IMG/VR virus record: IMGVR_UViG_3300033067_000884 | Span: 5,650-69,649 of that record | Reading direction: 5' to 3' (one strand) | From: a virus | Lineage: Duplodnaviria > Caudoviricetes | Length of the DNA stretch: 64,000 bases | Shown: piece by piece, positions 33,648 through 45,721 of the stretch | Numbering within the stretch: the stretch's first letter is position 1 | Layout of the letters: each line of letters begins with the position of its first letter | Position numbers and translations under genes: made by a program | Notes under the pieces: generated by a model | What the model was told of the DNA's origin: nothing | The model's input: the letters and a program-made list of their open reading frames with translations, nothing else | The model's database searches: none

Positions 33648-36600
33648 TTATTGTCTATTGCCGCCTAATTTGCTGCCCGTTTTTGCAGCTACCCCAGCAC
33701 TGAGCGTATTCGGCCCCACTGCCGTGCCTGAGTTAATTGTGACCTGCGCCGGTTGAGTGACTTGTCCATTCACTGTTACCTGGATATTCACATTAGCGTT
33801 CTTTAACGCCTGTGCTAAGTCAAAGTTCTGGACTTTCTGAATCAACGCCGTTACTGCACCATTGAATGCTGATGCACTCGTTATTAACGATGCTGCCCCT
33901 ACACCCGCCGCTGGTAATGCTGTTGCAATCGTACCAATCGCTGTGCCTGTCTTAGCTGCGTTTGTACCTAATATCGCTAAGTCATCTTTTGTCTTACCAG
34001 AAGATTGCGCCAGCGTTGATAGACTGGTCTTTGTCTTTTCAGCTCCGTCCACTACTGGCCCACTTAAATCCCTGTCCCTATCAGTATTGCCTGGGTTCGT
34101 TGTAGGTTTACCAGGAGGCAATTGTGGCGGTAATGTCCCTGTAGGAGCTAAGACTGTTGTGCCCTGTATGACATCAGCAGGCTTCGGCGCGCCAAAGAAT
34201 GGTTGGTTAGGATTAACAAGCTGATTATACGCCGCTTGTACGCCAGCATCCTTTGGTGGAATGGGCTTGTTTCTCTCAGCATTACGCAGCCGGATATCTT
34301 CTATACCCGTATCTGGCGGTAACTTATCCTTTGAGCTGGCGTCATTGAGATCATCGATCTGCTTCTGCTTAAAGTCTAGGAACCGTTGAACAGCCGCCGA
34401 TATCTTCTGATCCGATTTAATCGTATCGGGTATAATTTGCGGCTCTACTTCGCTGTATACTGCCGCTGTACCAGGATTTGGATAGAATAAAGGCCGTGCC
34501 CCTTTTTGATTTGTTCCCTTGACATCGCTAAGGCTTGCGCCCTTATCACCATTGTCCCCATTGATGAGCTGTTGGGCGAGTTGCTGTGCAAATGCTAATG
34601 GTACAAGACCCTGCCCGGCGAGAGTTGGGAAGTTCTTATCGCCCTTCTCTTTGCCGCCGCTATCGTAATAATCAAAGATCGTCGGCTGCTTATAGTTACT
34701 TGGTAGATTATAGTGACCACGCAGCGTATCATTGCTCTTGGTATTGGCGTCAATAGCCGCCTTTAAGAACTCTTGCCCGATACCGGTCTGAGACAGTAAC
34801 TCATTATTCTTCTTGAGAATAAGGATACGCTCGTTCTCATATTTACCGGCCCGATTGGGGTCAAGCTTCTCGGCTTGTCCTTGTAAGCTACGCGCCTGCT
34901 CAAGTATCTTCTGAATTTGCTGGTCAGAGTATTGACTTAAATCCTGTAGCGGCGCTTCTTTCTTCTGTTGCTGTTGTTGCAGGTATTCCTGTACAAAGCC
35001 CTGATTAACGCCGGTCACTCCCTTGAAGTCTGTTCCTGACTGTAGTAAGAATTGATCCTTTGCAAACTCTTTCTTATACTCTGGGTTTAATGCCTCTAGC
35101 TTGGATTGCTTCCTTAGCGCGAAGTCGATGGCGTTATTTAGTTCAGTAGCAGTTGTACCCTTTGTATCAAAGATACTAGCGGGCGTAAACTGAGCAGGTG
35201 TACCAGCACTAATAAGCTGCCGGGTTTTCTGCTGTGCTTCTACCTGAGCAGTTTGATCCAGTAATGCGCCGGATTGACTCTTGAGTAGTTCAAGGAATGC
35301 TTTGTTAATGTCATAGCGCGCCTTGTCAGTAGCTAACGCCTTCTGTAACGCCTCTACCTCTTTAACAATCTCCGGCTGCTTTGCCTTGAATTGATCCGTT
35401 GACTGTAAACTGCGTAGTCTTGATTGCTGTAGTTCATACAGTTGTACAGAACGGTCAGCTTCGATAGCAGGCTGGAACCGTTGAGCTATTTGTGATTGCC
35501 CCTGAGAACCAACATTATAGAGTCGCTGCTCTAAACCACCAGTATTTAGCCCTAGCGACTGAGCAAGTGGTACGAGCTGCTGTAATGTTTGTGGTAATGC
35601 CGCTAATGACTCTTGTGACCGAGCTAGTCTATCCAATGCGCCCTGAGCATCTTGCCCCTTCAATGCGCCGCTATTGATCTTATTCAGATCAGGCTGAAAC
35701 GATTGATTGATGCTCTGTGCTAATGGACTAAACGCGTTGTACTTATCCAGCCCATATGGCGTTTGATAATTATTCTGTAGCTTAGCTTCCAAGTCAGCTT
35801 GCTGCTGTTGGCCCTTTTGTATAATGTCCTGCGCGCTTTCGTATTGGGCGCGTTTGACATCATTATCCGTAACTGCTTGCGATGCAACTGCTTGCTGTCG
35901 AGTCTCAACACTGAGTTTGGAGAAGTCCTCAGCTAATGGCCCTAAGCCCTTTGATGCTTGATCTAGTAACTGCAAGAACTCCTGTACGTTACTAACGCCA
36001 GAATCAGCAAAGAGATTTAGTAATTGCTTATTGCCGCCGAAGGCTCCAACGAGTTGTTCAGTCGGCGCGTTATTCTTGAAGTTATCGAGGAAATTACCTT
36101 GTGTCTTACCACTCTGAATATCAAGATACCGGCGCACACTAGCTGAGCTAATCTGCGTGGATATATCAACAAAAGGATTGGTATTCGCTTTAAGTAGATT
36201 ACTCTGTAAGTCACCTATCCCTAGTGTCTTACTTAGCCCATTAAGTTTTGTGGCTGCGGCAGCTTTATCCGCTGGCGTAACATCAACCGATTCATTCGGC
36301 GGCTTTTTGTTATATACCGCCTCTGCTAACTTCTCGGCAAATGTCTTGGACTCTTGCTCACTTGTCCCTAGTTTACCTGATACATCGAGATTCTCAGATA
36401 TCGTCTTTGCAATGCTGTACCCAATAATAGCCCCATAGGGCCCGCCAACCATACCGCCAGCTATACCGGCTGCAATACCGACGCCCACATTCGTGAGATT
36501 ATCTTTGCCTAAGCCACCAGAGATAAGATCGAATGCAACCGGCGCTGCAATAGCTCCCGCTGCTGCTCCTGGCTTCTGTAGACTTTGACGTAATTGAGAT

Positions 36601-39600
36601 AACCGACTTGGCTGACTTGCAGTAGCAATTAGGTCATCTGCATTGCTACGCAGGAATGATGGCTCAATCGCTTGCCCGCGTATCTGCGCAAGATCAGTTT
36701 CGGTAATACCGCTCGTATTGAGTGTCTTGTTACCAAGTCGAGCGTTAAGTGGAGTTTCTTTCTCTACTAACGCCCCGGCCTGTGTTAATGCAAATGCCGG
36801 TGCTGCTCCTGCGGCTGCATCAGTCGCTACTGCGTTCTTAGCAACTGTTGCGGTTTCTGCAATCTTCGCAAACGCAGCACTACCTGTATTACCTGTTTTA
36901 AGTAACGCCCCATCCAACTCTTCTAGGGCTACGCCGAGTAGATTAAGAACCTTTTGCAGCCGTGTTGTGCTTGACTCACCAACTCGACCGAAATCAGTTA
37001 GTTTCGATAGCGTACCAGAGAAACGGGTCTCTAAGCCCTGAATACCCTTCGCCAATGGCGAGAAGATATTCAAATCTTTCGATGCAAAGCCCACGGTAAA
37101 GAACTTGATAAATGGCGCTAACGCCGCCACCACTTTCTTTATCGATCCTTCATTATCATTTAAGAAGCCAGTGAGCTTAACCGCTGATGCCGATAGTGTA
37201 TCAAACAGTTTAGCCGCACTATCAAATCCGCCCGTGCCCACTAAGAAACTACCTAAGAACTGTGTACCAGTCGCTTGTAGTTTATTTAGCGAACCTGCGA
37301 ATGTTTGCGATTTCTGTGCAACTAGTTGCTGTGCAACTCCCTTCGGCGTCTGGTCAAGACTCGATTCCACGTTCGCATAGTTATTCCCAAAGCCCTGTAT
37401 AACCTTTGATATATCTGGCGATAGTTTCGGCCCGGCAATTGATTGAATTAATTGGTTATAGTCAATACTCTTTGATTTATCCTGGCTTAACTTATACAAG
37501 TCTTTCAGGATATCCTCAAAGCTACGATTCTCTAGTTGGTTCGTATTCTGATTAAACTGCTGGGTTGCAATGCCATTCTTAGCAAAGCTAGATTGGTTCG
37601 CTGAACTATATGTGCCCTCTAAGAATGAACGCAGAATATTTGAAGTTTCGTCCGATCCCTTGCCGATGGCTACAGACGACGTAGCAGTGATGCCGAGAAG
37701 TTGCTTGCTATTTAGGCCGTATTCTTTTGCTGATGCGGATAGACGCGAGTAGACTGTTAGCAGTTCGTCTCCCTGCGCGCCAGTAGTACGCTGCGCAATG
37801 ACCACTTGATCCATCACATCGCGTAAATCTTCGATTGAACGCGTAACCTTTTGTGCCGGGTCATCAATGCCTTCCATACCATCTTTGATTGTTGCAAGGA
37901 TAGCAGGGATAGACTCAAGACTTTGCTCTAGTGAAATACCAAACGCCGTTTGGGCACCTAATTGGACCTCAGATACCTGATTTGCTAGTTCGGCGCGCTG
38001 TGTTGGGTCTTTAACTGATCCAAGAATCTTGAAGTTCTTCAGATTTGTCTGAATAGCTTCATCAAATCCCTGTCCAGTTTTTACTGCAACGCCAACACTT
38101 TGGAATAGGAACTTCGACTTCGCTTGTGTAGCTTTATCGCCCACAACACCGAGCAAATTCGCTACTTCACCGAGTTCATCTTGTACACCAACAAGCTGCC
38201 GGAACATTTCCTGGAATGAATTGACAATACCGTATGTGAAGTTATCGCCGATTTGACGTAGACCACCAATTGTTACTTGATGTAATGCCGCGCCGAATCG
38301 ACTAACCGCCTTTTCCGGCTCGTCCAGTTTCTTATGCCCGAACTCATCAACATGCCCGTTGAGTGAGATCATTGCCCCAGTAGCAGTGCGTGCAGACAGC
38401 GTAAAGCGTTCTATGCCTGTTGCCGGGTCGATTGAGGATTGTTGTTGGAATGACCCTTCTCTTAGATTACGCCCGGTGAGTTTTTGAATCTTTTCATTAG
38501 CTATATCACGGAAGTTATTCTCGTCGGGGTAATACTGATTGAGGATAATACCCGCTATCTTACCGGGGCTTACCCCCTTCGTTGGAACAAGCTTTAGAAT
38601 ATCCTCATTTATATTCAGCGTTTCGGCTATATATTTACCTAACGCCTTCTGTATGATCTGAGGAGACCCCTTAACTTGTGCTAGTAGCGCGCTGACATTC
38701 TCTTGATTTGGTTCCTGTAATGTGCTGAACGCCTGTTTCGCAATATCAGCACCACCGGCCTGCCCGATTGCACTGATTGCTCGTCCTCTAAAACTGTCAG
38801 CGTTATACAATAATGGCTGAGCCGCTTGAGCGAGACGCTTCAATGATTCGGGATTTGATGCTACATCAGCAACACCGGGAACAATGGCTTGTAATTTATC
38901 CCCTAAACCCTTACCAAATGCTGGCCCAATATTTAGACCACTAAATATCTGATCAATCGCCTTACTGAGGTCAGTTTTAGCTTGCGTAACATCCGGCCCA
39001 GTATTCTTAAAGATTGTCTCTATCTCAAGACTGAACTGGGCAAACTTCGCTTGCAGACCAGCAAGATACTGCGGAGCGAATGTATCTGGTAGTGTTGCCT
39101 CAAGTGTTTTTACAACATCGTTATATAGGTCATCCCCATATACCTTGCGTAATTCCTCTTCGAGTTTAGCACTGCCTGATATTAACGCCTCACCTACATG
39201 AGCAAACGCTTCGCGGGGATCAAGTAGATACTCACTCTTCTGATCTAAATTACCGCCCTGGGCAAGATCAGCGTATCGTTGCTTACGCTTTGTCTCTAAT
39301 CCTTGATCTGCGAATGCTAAATCAGCGGCGTTAGTACCAGTATAGAGTGCTTTCCCTTTACGTCCCTGGTCATCTACTAGTTCATGAGTTGCTTCGTGAA
39401 CGAGTATGCCTGCCCTTGAGCGTCCAGCGCCCACATCCCCCGTCGTTGTAAGGATGAGAGAACTAACACGTTTACCAAGTTCATCTAAGATAGGCGCGGA
39501 TAAGCCCTGGATTTGATTGTTTTTAACATTACCGATAGCTTGATCAGAGAAGAATTGTCTCGTTGCCGCTAGTGCATTTTTCTGGTCAACAACGACAACG

Positions 39601-42600
39601 CCACCACCTATACCTTGCTGGAGTCCACTGCCTGCTGAGAACCGATTCAACGACTCATTAGCTTGGCGCGTTAGTAAAGACTCACGCTCTCCGACAAACG
39701 GCTTGACTTTACCGTATGCATCGAGCGTTGATTCGTGTATATCACGCGAGAACTCAGGCGTAGTCTCTGTAGAAGAAGCTATCTTGGTGAATTCTGCATC
39801 AAATACCGCGAATCTACTTCTCAGAATTGCTAGTGCTTCTTCTCCAAATGTATCAGGTATTGCTGTTTGTAAGTCTTTGACGAGTTGATTATATAAATCC
39901 TCGCCGTATATGTGGCGTAATGTTTTCTCTAAATCTTTGTTGCCTGTTATAAGAGACTGTCCTACATATGCATACTGCTCTGATGGATTCTCATAATATT
40001 TTTGGCTAAATTTATCGAATGGACTATATTGCCTAAGTATGCGCTTGCTTGTGGGGTCATCTACTTCCCCACGAAGTTTTATTCGCTCATCAATATCTGC
40101 CGGGTCTCTATACTGTAAATCCTGCGTAGCAAGATTTGCATGAACCCCGCCCGAATGTAGCTTACCGTACTCTTCTACAATTTGATGTGTACCTTCGTGT
40201 GCTAGGAGCTGTGCATCTCTGACTTTTGAAACGATACCTAGACCAGGAAGACGCGTTCCACCTATCTGATCGGGGCGTAATCTTGTATTTGGTGCTCTAT
40301 CTCCTTGCCAAGCTGCTTTCAGTATTTCATTTACAGTAGCATCGCTTGCGACAGTTACACCGTTTGCGCTAGCTCTGGAAAACCCTGTATTCTCTCCGAA
40401 TTTATCAAGAGATGCGCGGGCTTGTTCTGACAGTTGTTTATCGTTGTCAGATAGGAATCTAGCAAGATGCTGGTTTGCTCCAAGTGCAAATTCCGGCGTG
40501 GCTTCGTCCGGGTCAAGTTGTTTACCGGTTGATGGCCCGCCCTTACGCCGTGACTCTTCTTCTTCTTCTCGCGCAAGTACAATTCTATATGCTGTTATTT
40601 GGCTACGGAGTTGCTTGAGTTCTTCGGTATCCTTAGCAAGTTCTTGACGAAGTGCTAAGATAACTTCATCAGAGGCACCGGCATCTTGCGCTTTTTGTAA
40701 ATCTTCTTTACGTGTATTAACTCGTTCTGATAGCTGTGCCTCATCTGCACGAAGTCTGCGCGCTGTTCTATCAATGGGAGAACGTCTATACCCGGTACCT
40801 ACGCCTACTGCTGTTTCTGCAATATCGAGTAGTGTTTCAGACCGTCGTTGGTTGAATAACTCTCCTACGCCTTTAGGTAATAATTTAAGCCCGAAGAACG
40901 CGTTGGAATTAGATATAGTATGTAGGAACTTAATGATACCGCCAATGATGTCTAACGCTCCGCCGGGTCCACCCTCTTTAAATCCATTTGATATCTCACG
41001 TACAGAGTTAAGACCCGCGCCGAATTGACTGACGCCGAATGAGAATGGTCTGTACACATTCTTAGAAAATTTATTTGTTGCATCCCCAATATTATCAGTA
41101 AGGGCAAATGCAGGCGCAGCTTCCCCCTGCTGGGGTCCTCTGAAATAGCTCTTTACCTTCTCGGCTATGTCTCCGAAGGATATCTTGCCAATAGAACTAA
41201 ACAGATCGCTGAATGTTTCTCCAACGCGAGAGAATATATCCTTAAATGATGCCACAAATTGCTGTACATACTCTTTTATACGCGTACGTGCGGATGTTAC
41301 ATCATTCTTTATTACATCAACTCTACCGAGAGTATTACCGACAAACTTAGCAAAATCTTCTTCCGCCGCTACTGATGTTGTAGGGCGCGTATTTTGTAAT
41401 AGGACTTTATCCTGTTGGGCAAGTAGTGTCGCTTGCTTCTTTGCCCGCTCTATATCTAGCAAGTCAGCGGTATTAGCGCGCTTGTCTGATACAGGCTGTA
41501 ATGTGGTATCGCCGACTCCCTTATCCTCATAGAAATCAGTAATACCTAACGCACTGGCATAATATGCAGCAGCCCCATGTCCCTTTATACTCTTGGAATT
41601 ATAGTTAGCCCGCGATACCTGGTCTACAAAGCCGGGGATATCTTTTATCTGCCCCTGTTCATGCAGGTCATTCAAGTCAGCTTTAAGATTCTCATCCTTA
41701 GCGATGATCTCTTCCAGAAGCTGTCTACGCGTAGATACAATCTTTTGGTATTCATCATCGAGCGATGTGAATTCCTTGCTAAGATGTTCTATATTCTGGT
41801 CTATCTCAGCTACATCGGGGGTCTTATCTACCCCACCGGCACGCCGATATTCCTCATTCTTCGCGGCAAATACCTTTAGCAATGACGAGGGTTGTAGTGT
41901 ATTCTCTCCGACGGCATTTGCTAGACCATAATCTTTGGATAGGATACCTGCGTCTCGGCCTGACTTAGCAATAGCCGTGGCACACGACTCGCCAATTAGC
42001 TTACCTGATGCTTCATCAATAGTCTTAGTTAGACCGTATGCAGCGCCCTCTTGTGTATTTGCTACAAGGTTTGTCTTAAATTGCTCTGCTTGTTCAGATG
42101 TTACGCCATTGAGTGGTACTGCTTGAACTCTATCCCATGTACGTAATATATCTTCAAAAGAGTCAGCACCCGGATGCAGACCCAGCGGGGCCTCTTTGCC
42201 AGTTACAGTTTTGCCGGTGAACCCAGTCCCGCCATTATTAAGTAACTCAGCTACTTTAATAACGCCGTTTTCAAGAAACACTGCCAATGCATGATCAGCC
42301 GATGCCTTAGGGTCAAGAGCGTCATAGTTACTGGCACTCTTGCCTCCACTACTCCTACCGCTAACTCCTACAATTGCTACACCATGTTCACTGGCGGCTA
42401 TGGCAGAAAGCAAAGCTAGTCTATTTGCAGAAGCATCCGATTCACTTGTTCCAACTACCTTATCCCCGTGTGTATTATACTGCTGAGTGAATGGATTTCG
42501 GTCGATCTTACCAATAGCAGCAGTGTTATTGAACTCTCCTTCAAATGCGCCCTGCGCATAGCCCCTACCCGCATTAGCTGCGTACTGGGCCGATATACCA

Positions 42601-44750
42601 TAACCTGGTAATGCCAATAGCGCTTGTTGCTTTAGCAGCCCTAATTTGCTACCGCCAGCAAGCGTGCCCTGAGCCGCAGAGACCTGCTCTAGGACTTCAT
42701 CTGGGGTTAGTAAGTTCTTACCCGCAGTGCCGGGAACTTTGTTAAATTTGGCTGCCTGCTCAATCGTCTCTATGATACCGGAGCGTTTAAATGCCTCTGC
42801 CGTAGCAGTAGCGCACGTATCCCCAATATCTAGTAGGTCGCTTTTATTTAACTCGTTGGCAAATGAATAAACTGCCTTACCCGGCTCTGTCAACGCAGCT
42901 TGATGCTGTAGAAGTCCTTGCGCCTGTTCAGGCGTACCTGCTACTAATGATAGCGCCTTAACACTATCAGCTTGCGCTAGTATTTCCTCAGGTGTTCTAC
43001 GCTCTGGCGCATACGCTCCAAACGCCACACTACCTGTCTTGTTGCCTGGAGTGAGGTTATTCTTATCGCCTAGGTGTTCAAGAGCTTGTAGCTTGCCTTC
43101 TAAATCCCTAAAGAATAAGAGGACATGATCAGCAACGCCAGCTCCTGGTATAAGACTTGCACCACCCCCAGTTGAACCTAGCGTAGTAACAACGGCAATC
43201 TTATGAGGACTTTCATCAACAGCTTTAGATACCGCAGCTAAATTTGCATTTGCCTCCTCAACGCTGCCGCCTACAAGTCCATTGCCTTTTGTTACATATG
43301 CCCCAGTACGCGTATCAAGACGAACTCTATTTTCAGCTTCGGGAGTAATTTGTATCTGAGAGGGGTCAGGAGTATCTTTTCGTTTCCTTAGTGCATTGAA
43401 TGTATGAGAAAGTGCGAAGCTTGGACCCTGTTCTATTTCCTTACTTAGTCTTTCAGCTTCTTTAGCGGCAGATTCCCTAAGCTGTTTAATCGTATTAATG
43501 AGCTTGGTATCGTTAGCCTTGAATTCACTCAGGTCACCGGGCAAATTTGTAGCTACCGGTATATCACGTAACTGCCTCTGAAATCCTGTCTCAAGGTCAT
43601 CGAACGTCTTATTCTTACGTATCTGCTCAAAGTCCAGCTTCCTATCACGCTGTTCGTTGGGGCTTATATTTGGGTCATTACCGAATAATAGATAGTTACG
43701 AGCGATAGCCCTTTGAGAAGATGTTTTAGCTACACCATGTTCACGTACAGCAGCTTGGAATGCCTTATCGCGTGCGGTCTCTACGGCAGCAAGTGCGTCA
43801 TCCAGCTTACTTATTAATGCTACGCGCTTCTCTAATGCACCGCGCAATTCATCAACTTTAGCAGCCGCAGCAGCCGGGTCAGTAGTAGGTACAGTATTCT
43901 TGAGGTGTGCAAGGATATCATCTTTTGTAACTTTACCCCGTGCACCTGTACCAGTTACTTGAGAGATATCAACGCCGCGCTCTTCTGCAAATTGGATAGT
44001 ACGCGCCGCTGCCTGTGGGGGTTTCGTTACTCTTGCGGCGACAGTAGCAGCGGGTAATTCAATTGTAGGGGCTTGGACAACTGGTTGAATAGGGCGTTTT
44101 GCCAATTTCTGCCCCTCAGTAGCCGCGCTAACATCGATTGATATATTGACAGATTTAAGTGCTTGTAGCGTTTTTAGCACTCTATCCAACGCATCAGCAG
44201 CATCAGTGTATTTTTTCGGGTCGAGTTGATTGAGTGCAGTGACCCCTGCACCCAAGTTGGTAAGTCCGTTAATTTTCTCTAATGACGCAGATATACGGTC
44301 TACCGCTTCATCTAGTCCCTTACCACTACGACTAGACTGAGATTCAAGCTGTTCGAGATCGGTACGTATAACACTGATAGCAGTTGATGCAGCTTCGAGG
44401 TTTTTATTTGTATTAGCCTGGGCGCGACTAATAGCAGCCATCGCTTTAGCGTTTGCTTCTAATGCAGTGGTAGCTACCTGTAGCTGTCCGACGTTAAGTT
44501 TACCGAGTTCTGTGTTAATGGTCTTAACGCGATCTCGTATTTCATCTAGGAAGGGAGACTTGTTGCTATCCAGAAATTTACCTAACTTCTGGATAGCGCT
44601 AGTCAGTGTGGAAATATCTTTAGCATTCGACGCGAGATCAGCGAAGCTCTCTGTTGCTTGGTGCAGCTCGGTCTCTACGTTCCTAATTGTCCCAAGCAGT
44701 GCATCGAGGTCCTCTCGAATGGTGGATATTTTTGCGTTAAAATCGGCCAT
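33648..44750 (-). CDS. giant tape measure protein (3700 aa) with inserted enzyme domains
   Basis: Follows the frameshifted chaperone; helical TMP core from about aa 2160; Gly-rich TM segment; PSBD-like domain at aa 243-284, H..C domains at aa 542/646 and 820/923, HExxH at aa 1518 and 1785. Confidence 0.88.
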   Translation of the reverse strand: MADFNAKISTIREDLDALLGTIRNVETELHQATESFADLASNAKDISTLTSAIQKLGKFLDSNKSPFLDEIRDRVKTINTELGKLNVGQLQVATTALEANAKAMAAISRAQANTNKNLEAASTAISVIRTDLEQLESQSSRSGKGLDEAVDRISASLEKINGLTNLGAGVTALNQLDPKKYTDAADALDRVLKTLQALKSVNISIDVSAATEGQKLAKRPIQPVVQAPTIELPAATVAARVTKPPQAAARTIQFAEERGVDISQVTGTGARGKVTKDDILAHLKNTVPTTDPAAAAAKVDELRGALEKRVALISKLDDALAAVETARDKAFQAAVREHGVAKTSSQRAIARNYLLFGNDPNISPNEQRDRKLDFEQIRKNKTFDDLETGFQRQLRDIPVATNLPGDLSEFKANDTKLINTIKQLRESAAKEAERLSKEIEQGPSFALSHTFNALRKRKDTPDPSQIQITPEAENRVRLDTRTGAYVTKGNGLVGGSVEEANANLAAVSKAVDESPHKIAVVTTLGSTGGGASLIPGAGVADHVLLFFRDLEGKLQALEHLGDKNNLTPGNKTGSVAFGAYAPERRTPEEILAQADSVKALSLVAGTPEQAQGLLQHQAALTEPGKAVYSFANELNKSDLLDIGDTCATATAEAFKRSGIIETIEQAAKFNKVPGTAGKNLLTPDEVLEQVSAAQGTLAGGSKLGLLKQQALLALPGYGISAQYAANAGRGYAQGAFEGEFNNTAAIGKIDRNPFTQQYNTHGDKVVGTSESDASANRLALLSAIAASEHGVAIVGVSGRSSGGKSASNYDALDPKASADHALAVFLENGVIKVAELLNNGGTGFTGKTVTGKEAPLGLHPGADSFEDILRTWDRVQAVPLNGVTSEQAEQFKTNLVANTQEGAAYGLTKTIDEASGKLIGESCATAIAKSGRDAGILSKDYGLANAVGENTLQPSSLLKVFAAKNEEYRRAGGVDKTPDVAEIDQNIEHLSKEFTSLDDEYQKIVSTRRQLLEEIIAKDENLKADLNDLHEQGQIKDIPGFVDQVSRANYNSKSIKGHGAAAYYASALGITDFYEDKGVGDTTLQPVSDKRANTADLLDIERAKKQATLLAQQDKVLLQNTRPTTSVAAEEDFAKFVGNTLGRVDVIKNDVTSARTRIKEYVQQFVASFKDIFSRVGETFSDLFSSIGKISFGDIAEKVKSYFRGPQQGEAAPAFALTDNIGDATNKFSKNVYRPFSFGVSQFGAGLNSVREISNGFKEGGPGGALDIIGGIIKFLHTISNSNAFFGLKLLPKGVGELFNQRRSETLLDIAETAVGVGTGYRRSPIDRTARRLRADEAQLSERVNTRKEDLQKAQDAGASDEVILALRQELAKDTEELKQLRSQITAYRIVLAREEEEESRRKGGPSTGKQLDPDEATPEFALGANQHLARFLSDNDKQLSEQARASLDKFGENTGFSRASANGVTVASDATVNEILKAAWQGDRAPNTRLRPDQIGGTRLPGLGIVSKVRDAQLLAHEGTHQIVEEYGKLHSGGVHANLATQDLQYRDPADIDERIKLRGEVDDPTSKRILRQYSPFDKFSQKYYENPSEQYAYVGQSLITGNKDLEKTLRHIYGEDLYNQLVKDLQTAIPDTFGEEALAILRSRFAVFDAEFTKIASSTETTPEFSRDIHESTLDAYGKVKPFVGERESLLTRQANESLNRFSAGSGLQQGIGGGVVVVDQKNALAATRQFFSDQAIGNVKNNQIQGLSAPILDELGKRVSSLILTTTGDVGAGRSRAGILVHEATHELVDDQGRKGKALYTGTNAADLAFADQGLETKRKQRYADLAQGGNLDQKSEYLLDPREAFAHVGEALISGSAKLEEELRKVYGDDLYNDVVKTLEATLPDTFAPQYLAGLQAKFAQFSLEIETIFKNTGPDVTQAKTDLSKAIDQIFSGLNIGPAFGKGLGDKLQAIVPGVADVASNPESLKRLAQAAQPLLYNADSFRGRAISAIGQAGGADIAKQAFSTLQEPNQENVSALLAQVKGSPQIIQKALGKYIAETLNINEDILKLVPTKGVSPGKIAGIILNQYYPDENNFRDIANEKIQKLTGRNLREGSFQQQSSIDPATGIERFTLSARTATGAMISLNGHVDEFGHKKLDEPEKAVSRFGAALHQVTIGGLRQIGDNFTYGIVNSFQEMFRQLVGVQDELGEVANLLGVVGDKATQAKSKFLFQSVGVAVKTGQGFDEAIQTNLKNFKILGSVKDPTQRAELANQVSEVQLGAQTAFGISLEQSLESIPAILATIKDGMEGIDDPAQKVTRSIEDLRDVMDQVVIAQRTTGAQGDELLTVYSRLSASAKEYGLNSKQLLGITATSSVAIGKGSDETSNILRSFLEGTYSSANQSSFAKNGIATQQFNQNTNQLENRSFEDILKDLYKLSQDKSKSIDYNQLIQSIAGPKLSPDISKVIQGFGNNYANVESSLDQTPKGVAQQLVAQKSQTFAGSLNKLQATGTQFLGSFLVGTGGFDSAAKLFDTLSASAVKLTGFLNDNEGSIKKVVAALAPFIKFFTVGFASKDLNIFSPLAKGIQGLETRFSGTLSKLTDFGRVGESSTTRLQKVLNLLGVALEELDGALLKTGNTGSAAFAKIAETATVAKNAVATDAAAGAAPAFALTQAGALVEKETPLNARLGNKTLNTSGITETDLAQIRGQAIEPSFLRSNADDLIATASQPSRLSQLRQSLQKPGAAAGAIAAPVAFDLISGGLGKDNLTNVGVGIAAGIAGGMVGGPYGAIIGYSIAKTISENLDVSGKLGTSEQESKTFAEKLAEAVYNKKPPNESVDVTPADKAAAATKLNGLSKTLGIGDLQSNLLKANTNPFVDISTQISSASVRRYLDIQSGKTQGNFLDNFKNNAPTEQLVGAFGGNKQLLNLFADSGVSNVQEFLQLLDQASKGLGPLAEDFSKLSVETRQQAVASQAVTDNDVKRAQYESAQDIIQKGQQQQADLEAKLQNNYQTPYGLDKYNAFSPLAQSINQSFQPDLNKINSGALKGQDAQGALDRLARSQESLAALPQTLQQLVPLAQSLGLNTGGLEQRLYNVGSQGQSQIAQRFQPAIEADRSVQLYELQQSRLRSLQSTDQFKAKQPEIVKEVEALQKALATDKARYDINKAFLELLKSQSGALLDQTAQVEAQQKTRQLISAGTPAQFTPASIFDTKGTTATELNNAIDFALRKQSKLEALNPEYKKEFAKDQFLLQSGTDFKGVTGVNQGFVQEYLQQQQQKKEAPLQDLSQYSDQQIQKILEQARSLQGQAEKLDPNRAGKYENERILILKKNNELLSQTGIGQEFLKAAIDANTKSNDTLRGHYNLPSNYKQPTIFDYYDSGGKEKGDKNFPTLAGQGLVPLAFAQQLAQQLINGDNGDKGASLSDVKGTNQKGARPLFYPNPGTAAVYSEVEPQIIPDTIKSDQKISAAVQRFLDFKQKQIDDLNDASSKDKLPPDTGIEDIRLRNAERNKPIPPKDAGVQAAYNQLVNPNQPFFGAPKPADVIQGTTVLAPTGTLPPQLPPGKPTTNPGNTDRDRDLSGPVVDGAEKTKTSLSTLAQSSGKTKDDLAILGTNAAKTGTAIGTIATALPAAGVGAASLITSASAFNGAVTALIQKVQNFDLAQALKNANVNIQVTVNGQVTQPAQVTINSGTAVGPNTLSAGVAAKTGSKLGGNRQ

Positions 44751-44762
44751 GATACCTCTACA

Positions 44763-45038
44763 TTAGAATTCAACATCATCTGTTGAAACGTCTGCGCTGC
44801 TCTTATTCATTCCCGGATATAAGTTCTCTATGTGACGCCTTATTAGTGCAGGATAATCCCAATACTCCTCTGGCGGAACATCTGACAGTTCCATCAAAGA
44901 ATCATACCGCTGGCGTAATGCCACAAGCGTTGTGATTGTATTCGGCCAATCCCACGTATCTAATAAGTCTGTATGTAGAGGTCTTCCTGTATTCTTTACA
45001 ATACTCCACAGAAGCGCAACCTGTGGAGTTTTTGCTAG
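44763..45038 (-). CDS. tail assembly chaperone, -1 frameshift extension (GT-like, 91 aa)
   Basis: Open -1 frame LAKTPQVALLW...DDVEF* with no start of its own, entered at A AAA AAC. Confidence 0.88.
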   Translation of the reverse strand, partial: LAKTPQVALLWSIVKNTGRPLHTDLLDTWDWPNTITTLVALRQRYDSLMELSDVPPEEYWDYPALIRRHIENLYPGMNKSSADVSTDDVEF

Positions 45039-45044
45039 TTTTTT
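45003..45044 (-). other. programmed -1 ribosomal frameshift signal
   Basis: Slippery heptamer A AAA AAC (45044-45038), 8-nt spacer, perfect 9-bp hairpin ACTCCACAG/CTGTGGAGT. Confidence 0.88.
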
Positions 45045-45721
45045 ATATCGTCAGGAGCGATGCTCATATTGTTATAAGCATCGCGTAACTGCTGCCTGAC
45101 TTCAGTAGGTAGTTCCCGATACTGCTCAATGGTGAACATACGCGTCTTGTACTTATCATCCGTGTAAATACTCGCCGCTACTACTTGCTCTTCGAACACT
45201 TCGGTAAACTTATCTTCACAAATCTGGTCGGTACGTAGTTTCTGTGCCGCCGAGAACAAGATAGGACGATCGCGCTTCTCTAGATTAGCAACGAACTCCT
45301 TCTGCCAGTTCTCTACATACGCTGTCATATCCGCAAGATACTCAGCCTCTCTTGCCTCTTTCGAAGCTTCCCACTCTTCCTGCTCTTCCTGTGTGGGGTT
45401 ATCCCCAAGCGGTGTAATAATCGGGCGCGGCGTTGTATTGAGGTACTCCCGCATAATCTCACGCATAGAAACGGTAGTAATAAGTGTACGCAACTGGTCA
45501 TCATCAAGATCATTTAGCGGGTCAATATAAATAAGGTAGTCATCGGTTGAACTATCGCGCACAGATCGGCGTAGCTTACGGGATTCAAGCAGTGCTGTTC
45601 GGCGGGCGTCATCAACAACCTGGTCACTTACAACACGGATATAAAACTTCGTACCACTAATCTCAACCGTTGTACGCCAGCGAAAGAGTTTAGCCATGAG
45701 AGCTTCGGTATTAATAGACAT
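45035..45721 (-). CDS. tail assembly chaperone (G-like)
   Basis: Between the tail tube and TMP genes; acidic and helical; ends at the slippery site. Confidence 0.85.
   Translation of the reverse strand: MSINTEALMAKLFRWRTTVEISGTKFYIRVVSDQVVDDARRTALLESRKLRRSVRDSSTDDYLIYIDPLNDLDDDQLRTLITTVSMREIMREYLNTTPRPIITPLGDNPTQEEQEEWEASKEAREAEYLADMTAYVENWQKEFVANLEKRDRPILFSAAQKLRTDQICEDKFTEVFEEQVVAASIYTDDKYKTRMFTIEQYRELPTEVRQQLRDAYNNMSIAPDDIKN

Follow-up and report, generated by a model that had tools for sequence, protein, structure and literature searches.

A predicted phage tape measure protein carries a peripheral subunit-binding domain of 2-oxoacid dehydrogenases with altered partner-contact residues

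The 64,000-nucleotide stretch analysed here (hereafter the window) makes up most of a 69.6-kb viral contig of the IMG/VR database, which is estimated to be 37% complete, and encodes P0002, a putative tape measure protein (TMP) of a tailed phage. Near the N-terminus of this very long protein lies a PSBD (peripheral subunit-binding domain), a domain that is, by textbook account, specific to 2-oxoacid dehydrogenase complexes. The segment in question (window:43899-44024) is sensible only when read on the minus strand, where it codes for amino acids (aa) 243-284 of P0002. The open reading frame (ORF), its parts and its neighbors are listed in Table 1.

Table 1. Positions in the window of the PSBD-carrying gene, of the regions that it encodes and of flanking genes
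Feature	Position	Strand	Basis
Tape-measure-type tail protein P0002, 3700 aa, PSBD carrier	33648..44750	-	Single ORF; TMP_3 match; PF10145 matches of orthologues; conserved gene order
N-terminal region, aa 1-215, predicted helical/coiled coil	44106..44750	-	Found in 10/11 other family proteins
Upstream Pro/Ala/Val-rich flexible linker, aa 216-244	44019..44105	-	AlphaFold2 (AF2) pLDDT 49-52, no secondary structure
Folded PSBD, aa 245-289	43884..44018	-	PF02817 match, AF2, Foldseek, conservation, dN/dS
Start of next long helix, aa 292-329	43764..43877	-	AF2 model residues 88-125, pLDDT 93-98; preceded by linker of ~7 residues
Tape-measure core match, PF20155 TMP_3, aa 2289-2373	37632..37886	-	30 bits, below cut-off
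228-aa ORF just upstream of the P0002 gene, putative tail assembly chaperone position	45035..45721	-	Role suggested by position
Short ORF between the 228-aa ORF and the P0002 gene	44763-44924	-	Position
1165-aa tail protein downstream of the P0002 gene	29117..32614	-	phrog_1887 tail protein, E 5.6e-9

A first-pass annotation of this DNA had proposed a PSBD at aa 243-284, and both a family match and a matching fold were found. Whole P0002 matches the Pfam family PF02817 (E3_binding; gathering cut-off 23.7 bits) at aa 253-280 with 31.9 bits (E 1.5e-7), an excised 117-aa piece reaches 39 bits, and across all six frames of the complete 69.6-kb viral record this was the one site found, with 40.2 bits. 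The match in P0002 begins at profile position 9, indicating an atypical helix 1; the homologue P0006 matches the full profile (positions 1-35) with 43.4 bits. A phmmer search against all PDB sequences returned almost only PSBDs of E2 or E3BP chains, the best being 1w4i (E 1.1e-5). In an AF2 model of aa 205-330, for which the folding alignment contained PSBDs, a disordered upstream linker (predicted local distance difference test score, pLDDT, about 50) leads into a PSBD-shaped unit at aa 245-289 (pLDDT 84-90) composed of helix 1 (aa 249-257), a GTGxxG loop (aa 267-272) and helix 2 (aa 276-286). As modelled, the unit displays the defining features of the fold, namely about 35 residues, two parallel helices and a structured loop with a 3-10 turn. 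Foldseek against the PDB placed PSBDs at all of ranks 1-30, with target-normalised TM-scores of up to 0.92, and the leading match was 1w85_I, the Bacillus stearothermophilus domain bound to E1 (target-normalised TM-score 0.90, rmsd 0.5 Å, 46% identity). The segment is genuinely homologous to the PSBD of 2-oxoacid dehydrogenase E2 chains.

With the PSBD of the pyruvate dehydrogenase (PDH) E2 of Geobacillus (Bacillus) stearothermophilus (PDB 1W85, 1EBD, 2PDD), the phage domain shares the two-helix fold, the GTGxxG loop and a flexible linker in front. Unlike that domain, it lies outside an E2 chain and is accompanied by neither a lipoyl nor an acyltransferase domain: P0002 shows no match to PF00364 or PF00198, which places its PSBD outside the E2/E3BP setting. 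In the phage domain, the E1- and E3-contacting Arg and Lys residues of helix 1 and the loop are also replaced, and the downstream linker is very short. Of the Ala/Pro-rich linkers that the first-pass annotation had seen on both sides, the upstream one is borne out (aa 216-244, pLDDT <52), whereas on the downstream side only about seven residues precede the helix that starts at aa 292. In the alignment of homologues, the upstream linker varies, and only a K(R/K)PIQPVV stretch is conserved in it.

Ten homologues of P0002, with lengths of 2646-3484 aa, were retrieved from among 5.8 billion proteins, and an eleventh, the near-identical P0013, was obtained from a cluster look-up. In four of them (P0003, P0004, P0005 and P0006), the PSBD is present at the same position as in the window, and all positions of the core motif A-x-E-x-G-[VI]-D-[LI]-x-x-V-x-G-[TS]-G-x-x-G-x-[IV]-x-x-x-D-[VI] are found throughout P0002-P0006. 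The four homologues that share the position of the domain come from independent assemblies, and it is therefore neither a chance resemblance nor an assembly chimera; specifically, a chimera with a host E2 fragment was considered and ruled out, as the insertion point is common to five independent assemblies. The near-identical pair P0010 and P0013 has kept both PSBD helices and lacks the GTGxxG loop, P0007, P0008 and P0009 retain only a helix-1-like remnant, and the domain is absent from P0011 and P0012. The truncated PSBD of P0010/P0013 (aa 219-264; helix 1 AIAFAQEQGIDLSQF, helix 2 VTKADLQRYLK) may be a domain caught in the course of decay, or a minimal variant made of two helices.

A maximum-likelihood tree was built from the C-terminal 1740 aa, and all its forks have strong support. 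The basal split of the ingroup has PSBD carriers on either side, which suggests a single ancient gain, later decay of the domain in P0010/P0013 and its loss from P0007-9 and P0011; a single acquisition before the ingroup diversified, followed by decay in one subclade, is indicated as the simplest history. Among the five carriers, the PSBD core has a mean pairwise identity of 65%, compared to 36-55% for neighboring segments, and no other part of the N-terminal 440 residues is as well conserved. Rough dN/dS values of 0.10-0.27, with saturated dS, likewise suggest that the domain is under purifying selection where it has been kept. According to the family module table, its presence does not track that of two His/Cys domains or of the HExxH domains located further downstream in these proteins.

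The key contact residues of the B. stearothermophilus PSBD, as seen in structural work on its complexes, are R135, R139 and R156. E3 is recruited through an “electrostatic zipper” that charged helix-1 side chains of the PSBD provide (PMC9974300). The first-pass annotation had cautioned that the basic residues of helix 1 are partly replaced in the window, and this could be quantified with an alignment of 321 PSBD instances, taken from those 150 of 1.84 billion proteins that resemble the query domain most closely. At aa 252 (equivalent to R135), Arg or Lys occurs in 45% of the 321 instances, with alignment gaps in 33%, and the phage clade has Ile or Val. The equivalent of K136, aa 253, is basic in 69% of instances and Gln in the phage clade, while aa 273, equivalent to R156, is basic in 78% and Lys, Leu, Val or Ile in the phage clade. 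At least two of the three basic residues are present in 116 of the 135 complete PSBD instances. Of the 45 that belong to confirmed E2 chains, recognized by the acyltransferase motif DHRxxDG, 42 carry two or more and none (0/45) lacks all three. Four of the five phage copies have none of the three, and the window copy has one. As the comparison set was picked by similarity to the query, the contrast in basic residues is a conservative one. Net charge was dropped as a discriminator: that of the phage PSBD is about zero and so is the average of the comparison set.

The altered face is itself conserved. R250, T251, Q253 and F/Y254 are invariant in helix 1 of all five carriers, where E2 PSBDs have Arg or Lys, and R271 is present in four of the five; R250 and R271 each lie two positions before a canonical Arg site. 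A binding face that is conserved but different argues for a changed partner or binding mode and not for simple decay. Consequently, of the two suggestions of the first-pass annotation, the fallback, a PSBD put to use for a different ligand, is the better fit, and the principal one, a decoy or tether that captures host E1 or E3, is not supported: four of the five phage copies lack all three canonical basic residues, as does none of the confirmed E2 PSBDs.

Capture of host E3 or E1 would mean that the ejected PSBD docks on host dihydrolipoamide dehydrogenase or E1, either canonically or in the manner of E3BP, and thereby tethers the peptidase-like domains of the TMP to 2-oxoacid dehydrogenase complexes or displaces E3 or E1. 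The human E3BP binds E3 by a partly hydrophobic interface and has an Arg-Gly-Ile in its loop, as does the phage clade. Such capture would also be in keeping with the 46% sequence identity and near-identical modelled backbone that the phage domain shares with an E1/E3-binding domain, with its E2-like tethering by a flexible linker, and with the two shifted arginines. It is nevertheless judged unlikely, as the zipper positions are mostly non-basic, the Pfam match skips the start of an atypical helix 1, and the N-terminal end of a TMP may not reach the cytoplasm. The E3-binding domain of human E3BP (PDB 2F5Z, 1ZY8), a PSBD variant with narrowed specificity, gives weak sequence matches to the phage domain (E 0.1-0.15); unlike the phage carrier, E3BP is a subunit of the PDH core. 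A complex prediction of the PSBD (aa 240-294) with a stand-in Geobacillus E3 dimer scored 0.00, which, with controls not run, speaks neither for nor against binding. As to a partner encoded by the phage itself, no E1, E3 or lipoyl family was found among 25 of the 35 Pfam families matched across 60 ORFs of the window.

PSBDs also appear to have been reused elsewhere outside E2 chains, as judged from a Ser/Thr kinase with three PSBDs, PSBD-only arrays and matches without any E2 domain. The nearest PSBD-bearing proteins include P0017, a 472-aa protein in which a Ser/Thr protein kinase is followed by three PSBDs, and P0016, P0020 and P0021, which consist of PSBDs only. The arrays comprise three or four PSBDs without E2 domains, and neither they nor the kinase architecture were described in the literature searched. 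About half of the 105 matches without the DHRxxDG motif show no E2 domain, many of these being gene fragments. These proteins resemble P0002 in carrying the PSBD as a tethered module outside E2; unlike P0002, the non-E2 carriers mostly retain the basic residues (at least one in 89 of 90 instances, at least two in 74 of 90), and none of them is a virion protein by Pfam. No PHROGs family matches the PSBD segment, and tblastn of the domain against phage records found only four unannotated Listeria/Staphylococcus records, two of them only 2-3 kb long. A search for other giant PSBD proteins that was confined to the domain region, which is too short for the database used, gave back the query alone.

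Alternatively, the PSBD might be a structural passenger, a stable, ligand-less bead that serves as a hinge or spacer between helical segments and is able to pass the tail tube and refold. Solved PSBDs are model ultrafast-folding domains (titles of PDB 1w4e and 2wxc), and several lineages have lost or truncated theirs without visible change in the tail module. A mere spacer, however, should tolerate surface drift, whereas the helix-1 surface residues R250, T251 and Q253 are invariant among proteins that are only 42-70% identical overall, and the domain is more conserved than its flanking helices. A passenger role therefore appears fairly improbable.

The assignment of P0002 as a TMP, made by the first-pass annotation, is accepted here on the evidence of orthologue matches and gene order. 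P0002 itself matches PF20155 (TMP_3) below the cut-off of 41 bits. Its orthologues P0007 and P0010 match PF10145 (PhageMin_Tail) above the cut-off of 33.2 bits, with 36.2 and 47.5 bits, respectively, and the matching region aligns with aa 1961-2500 of P0002 at 44-47% identity. The tail genes follow in the order of a 416-aa protein, the 228-aa protein, a short ORF, the P0002 gene, a protein of about 123-124 aa and a tail protein of ~1160 aa (phrog_1887), and every homologous contig that was recovered (five contigs) shows the genes arranged in this way. The roles of the neighboring genes are suggested by their position only. The 228-aa ORF has no family match. Together with the short ORF (window:44763-45721, minus strand), it lies at the usual place of frameshifting tail assembly chaperones, the second ORF of relatives measuring 82-87 aa; in L002, L004 and the contigs of P0003 and P0006, a pair of ORFs of 228 aa and ~84 aa is found 5' of the tape measure gene.

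The N-terminus of a TMP is located at the head-proximal end of the tail, and the PSBD might accordingly contact a phage component (chaperone, terminator or connector) or the DNA end at that site. The neighboring tail genes are, however, kept in relatives without a PSBD, and a net charge of about zero is poorly suited to DNA binding, so that an assembly or nucleic-acid contact is regarded as very unlikely.

Several further modules of the carrier protein vary within the family. Aa 1-215 form a putative N-terminal module, counted from an alignment of 12 family proteins and the module table, to which only P0011 lacks a BLAST match. P0002 contains two His/Cys domains (aa 470-1010; window:41700-43350, minus strand) that are otherwise found only in P0003-P0005 and, distantly, in P0012, while in P0006-P0011 the second coiled coil runs straight into a conserved “FSxNVYRP” segment. 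This patchy presence suggests that the N-terminal half of the family is built of swappable modules. P0002 also has two HExxH domains (aa 1441-1960; window:38500-40450, minus strand), HEGTH at aa 1518 and HEATH at aa 1785, where each relative has one. The second is the orthologous copy, with 50-63% identity to relatives, and the first, ~30% identical to the second, looks like a lineage-specific duplicate.

Beyond the tail module, the window encodes DnaB, primase, DNA polymerase A, a UvsX/RecA-like recombinase and homing endonucleases. A GIY-YIG/NUMOD3 endonuclease gene (window:32986-33642, minus strand) directly follows the tape measure gene, and an HNH endonuclease gene (window:47306-47857, minus strand) is located two genes upstream of the 416-aa tail gene. 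Both are uncalled at these positions in L002 and L004 and have the appearance of homing endonuclease insertions on either side of the tail module. A GT4 glycosyltransferase gene (window:49844-51076, minus strand) lies within the virion module, and L002, L003, L004 and the P0006 contig have it conserved at the corresponding location. In the P0005 phage, the DnaB helicase (L004:26188-28569, plus strand) carries an intein with a LAGLIDADG endonuclease and measures 793 aa, compared to 398 aa in the window. Searches of 50,697 phage records with the region, P0007 and the 416-aa tail protein (blastn and tblastn) returned no cultured relatives, DnaB gave only matches of ~25% identity in these records, spread over many hosts, and pattern scans of IMG/VR and GTDB genomes revealed no relatives. 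Of the sequencing runs, one contains the window and the others cover just small parts of it, and none of those listed as containing it is an RNA run.

The explanation that is tentatively favored, as plausible if short of probable, is that the PSBD of the TMP is a tethered protein-docking module with changed specificity. In this model, an ancestor of the tail-protein family would have captured a PSBD once and placed it near the N-terminus of the TMP, behind a disordered linker of ~30 residues and in front of a short one that runs into the next helix. The residues that determine the fold are intact in this clade, and the face formed by helix 1 and the loop has been rebuilt with different conserved residues, which would yield a small, self-folding module suited to binding a protein. 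Its partner is probably something other than E1 or E3 bound in the canonical mode, and may most likely be a host protein met when the TMP is expelled during infection. Half of the family has let the PSBD decay while the rest of the tail module was kept, which argues for an accessory role, and the accessory nature in turn for a host-facing function at or after TMP expulsion and not for a core assembly contact. A tiny, fast-folding domain would also be suited to passage through the tail tube and unaided refolding.

There is precedent for embedded functional motifs in TMPs, as exemplified by that of mycobacteriophage TM4 (PMC1796659). Like P0002, TM4-type TMPs are long proteins with an extra module; they determine tail length, and the module has its role at infection and is not needed to assemble the tail (PMC1796659). 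The embedded modules known to date are cell-wall hydrolase motifs, whereas that of P0002 is a docking domain from central metabolism.

Several points weigh against a docking module of changed specificity. The conservation of helix 1 could serve folding and not binding, and R250 together with R271, which lie just upstream of the canonical sites, might rebuild a basic patch. In addition, of the 11 family proteins in the ingroup, 6 (five clusters) have a decayed PSBD or none, so that the domain is possibly dispensable. A bolder version of the docking model, considered decidedly unlikely, holds that the TMP is expelled ahead of the DNA and refolds, and that the re-tuned PSBD then latches its N-terminal, peptidase-bearing half onto a specific host protein, possibly dihydrolipoamide dehydrogenase or a 2-oxoacid dehydrogenase complex bound non-canonically. 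If true, a virion protein would manipulate central metabolism, or a metabolic enzyme would serve as a cofactor of entry, and this already in the first seconds of infection.

The value of the finding is limited for now. In line with the first-pass annotation, which knew of no such case, no PSBD in a TMP was described in the literature searched for PSBD or PF02817 with phage or tape measure, and the domain in P0002 is a real, selected and, by that search, previously undescribed placement of a known domain in a TMP. With ~50 residues, it offers an easily expressed bait for host contacts of the ejected TMP. A selected, anciently acquired PSBD with a rebuilt binding face in a tail protein would mark this domain of central metabolism as a reusable docking unit.

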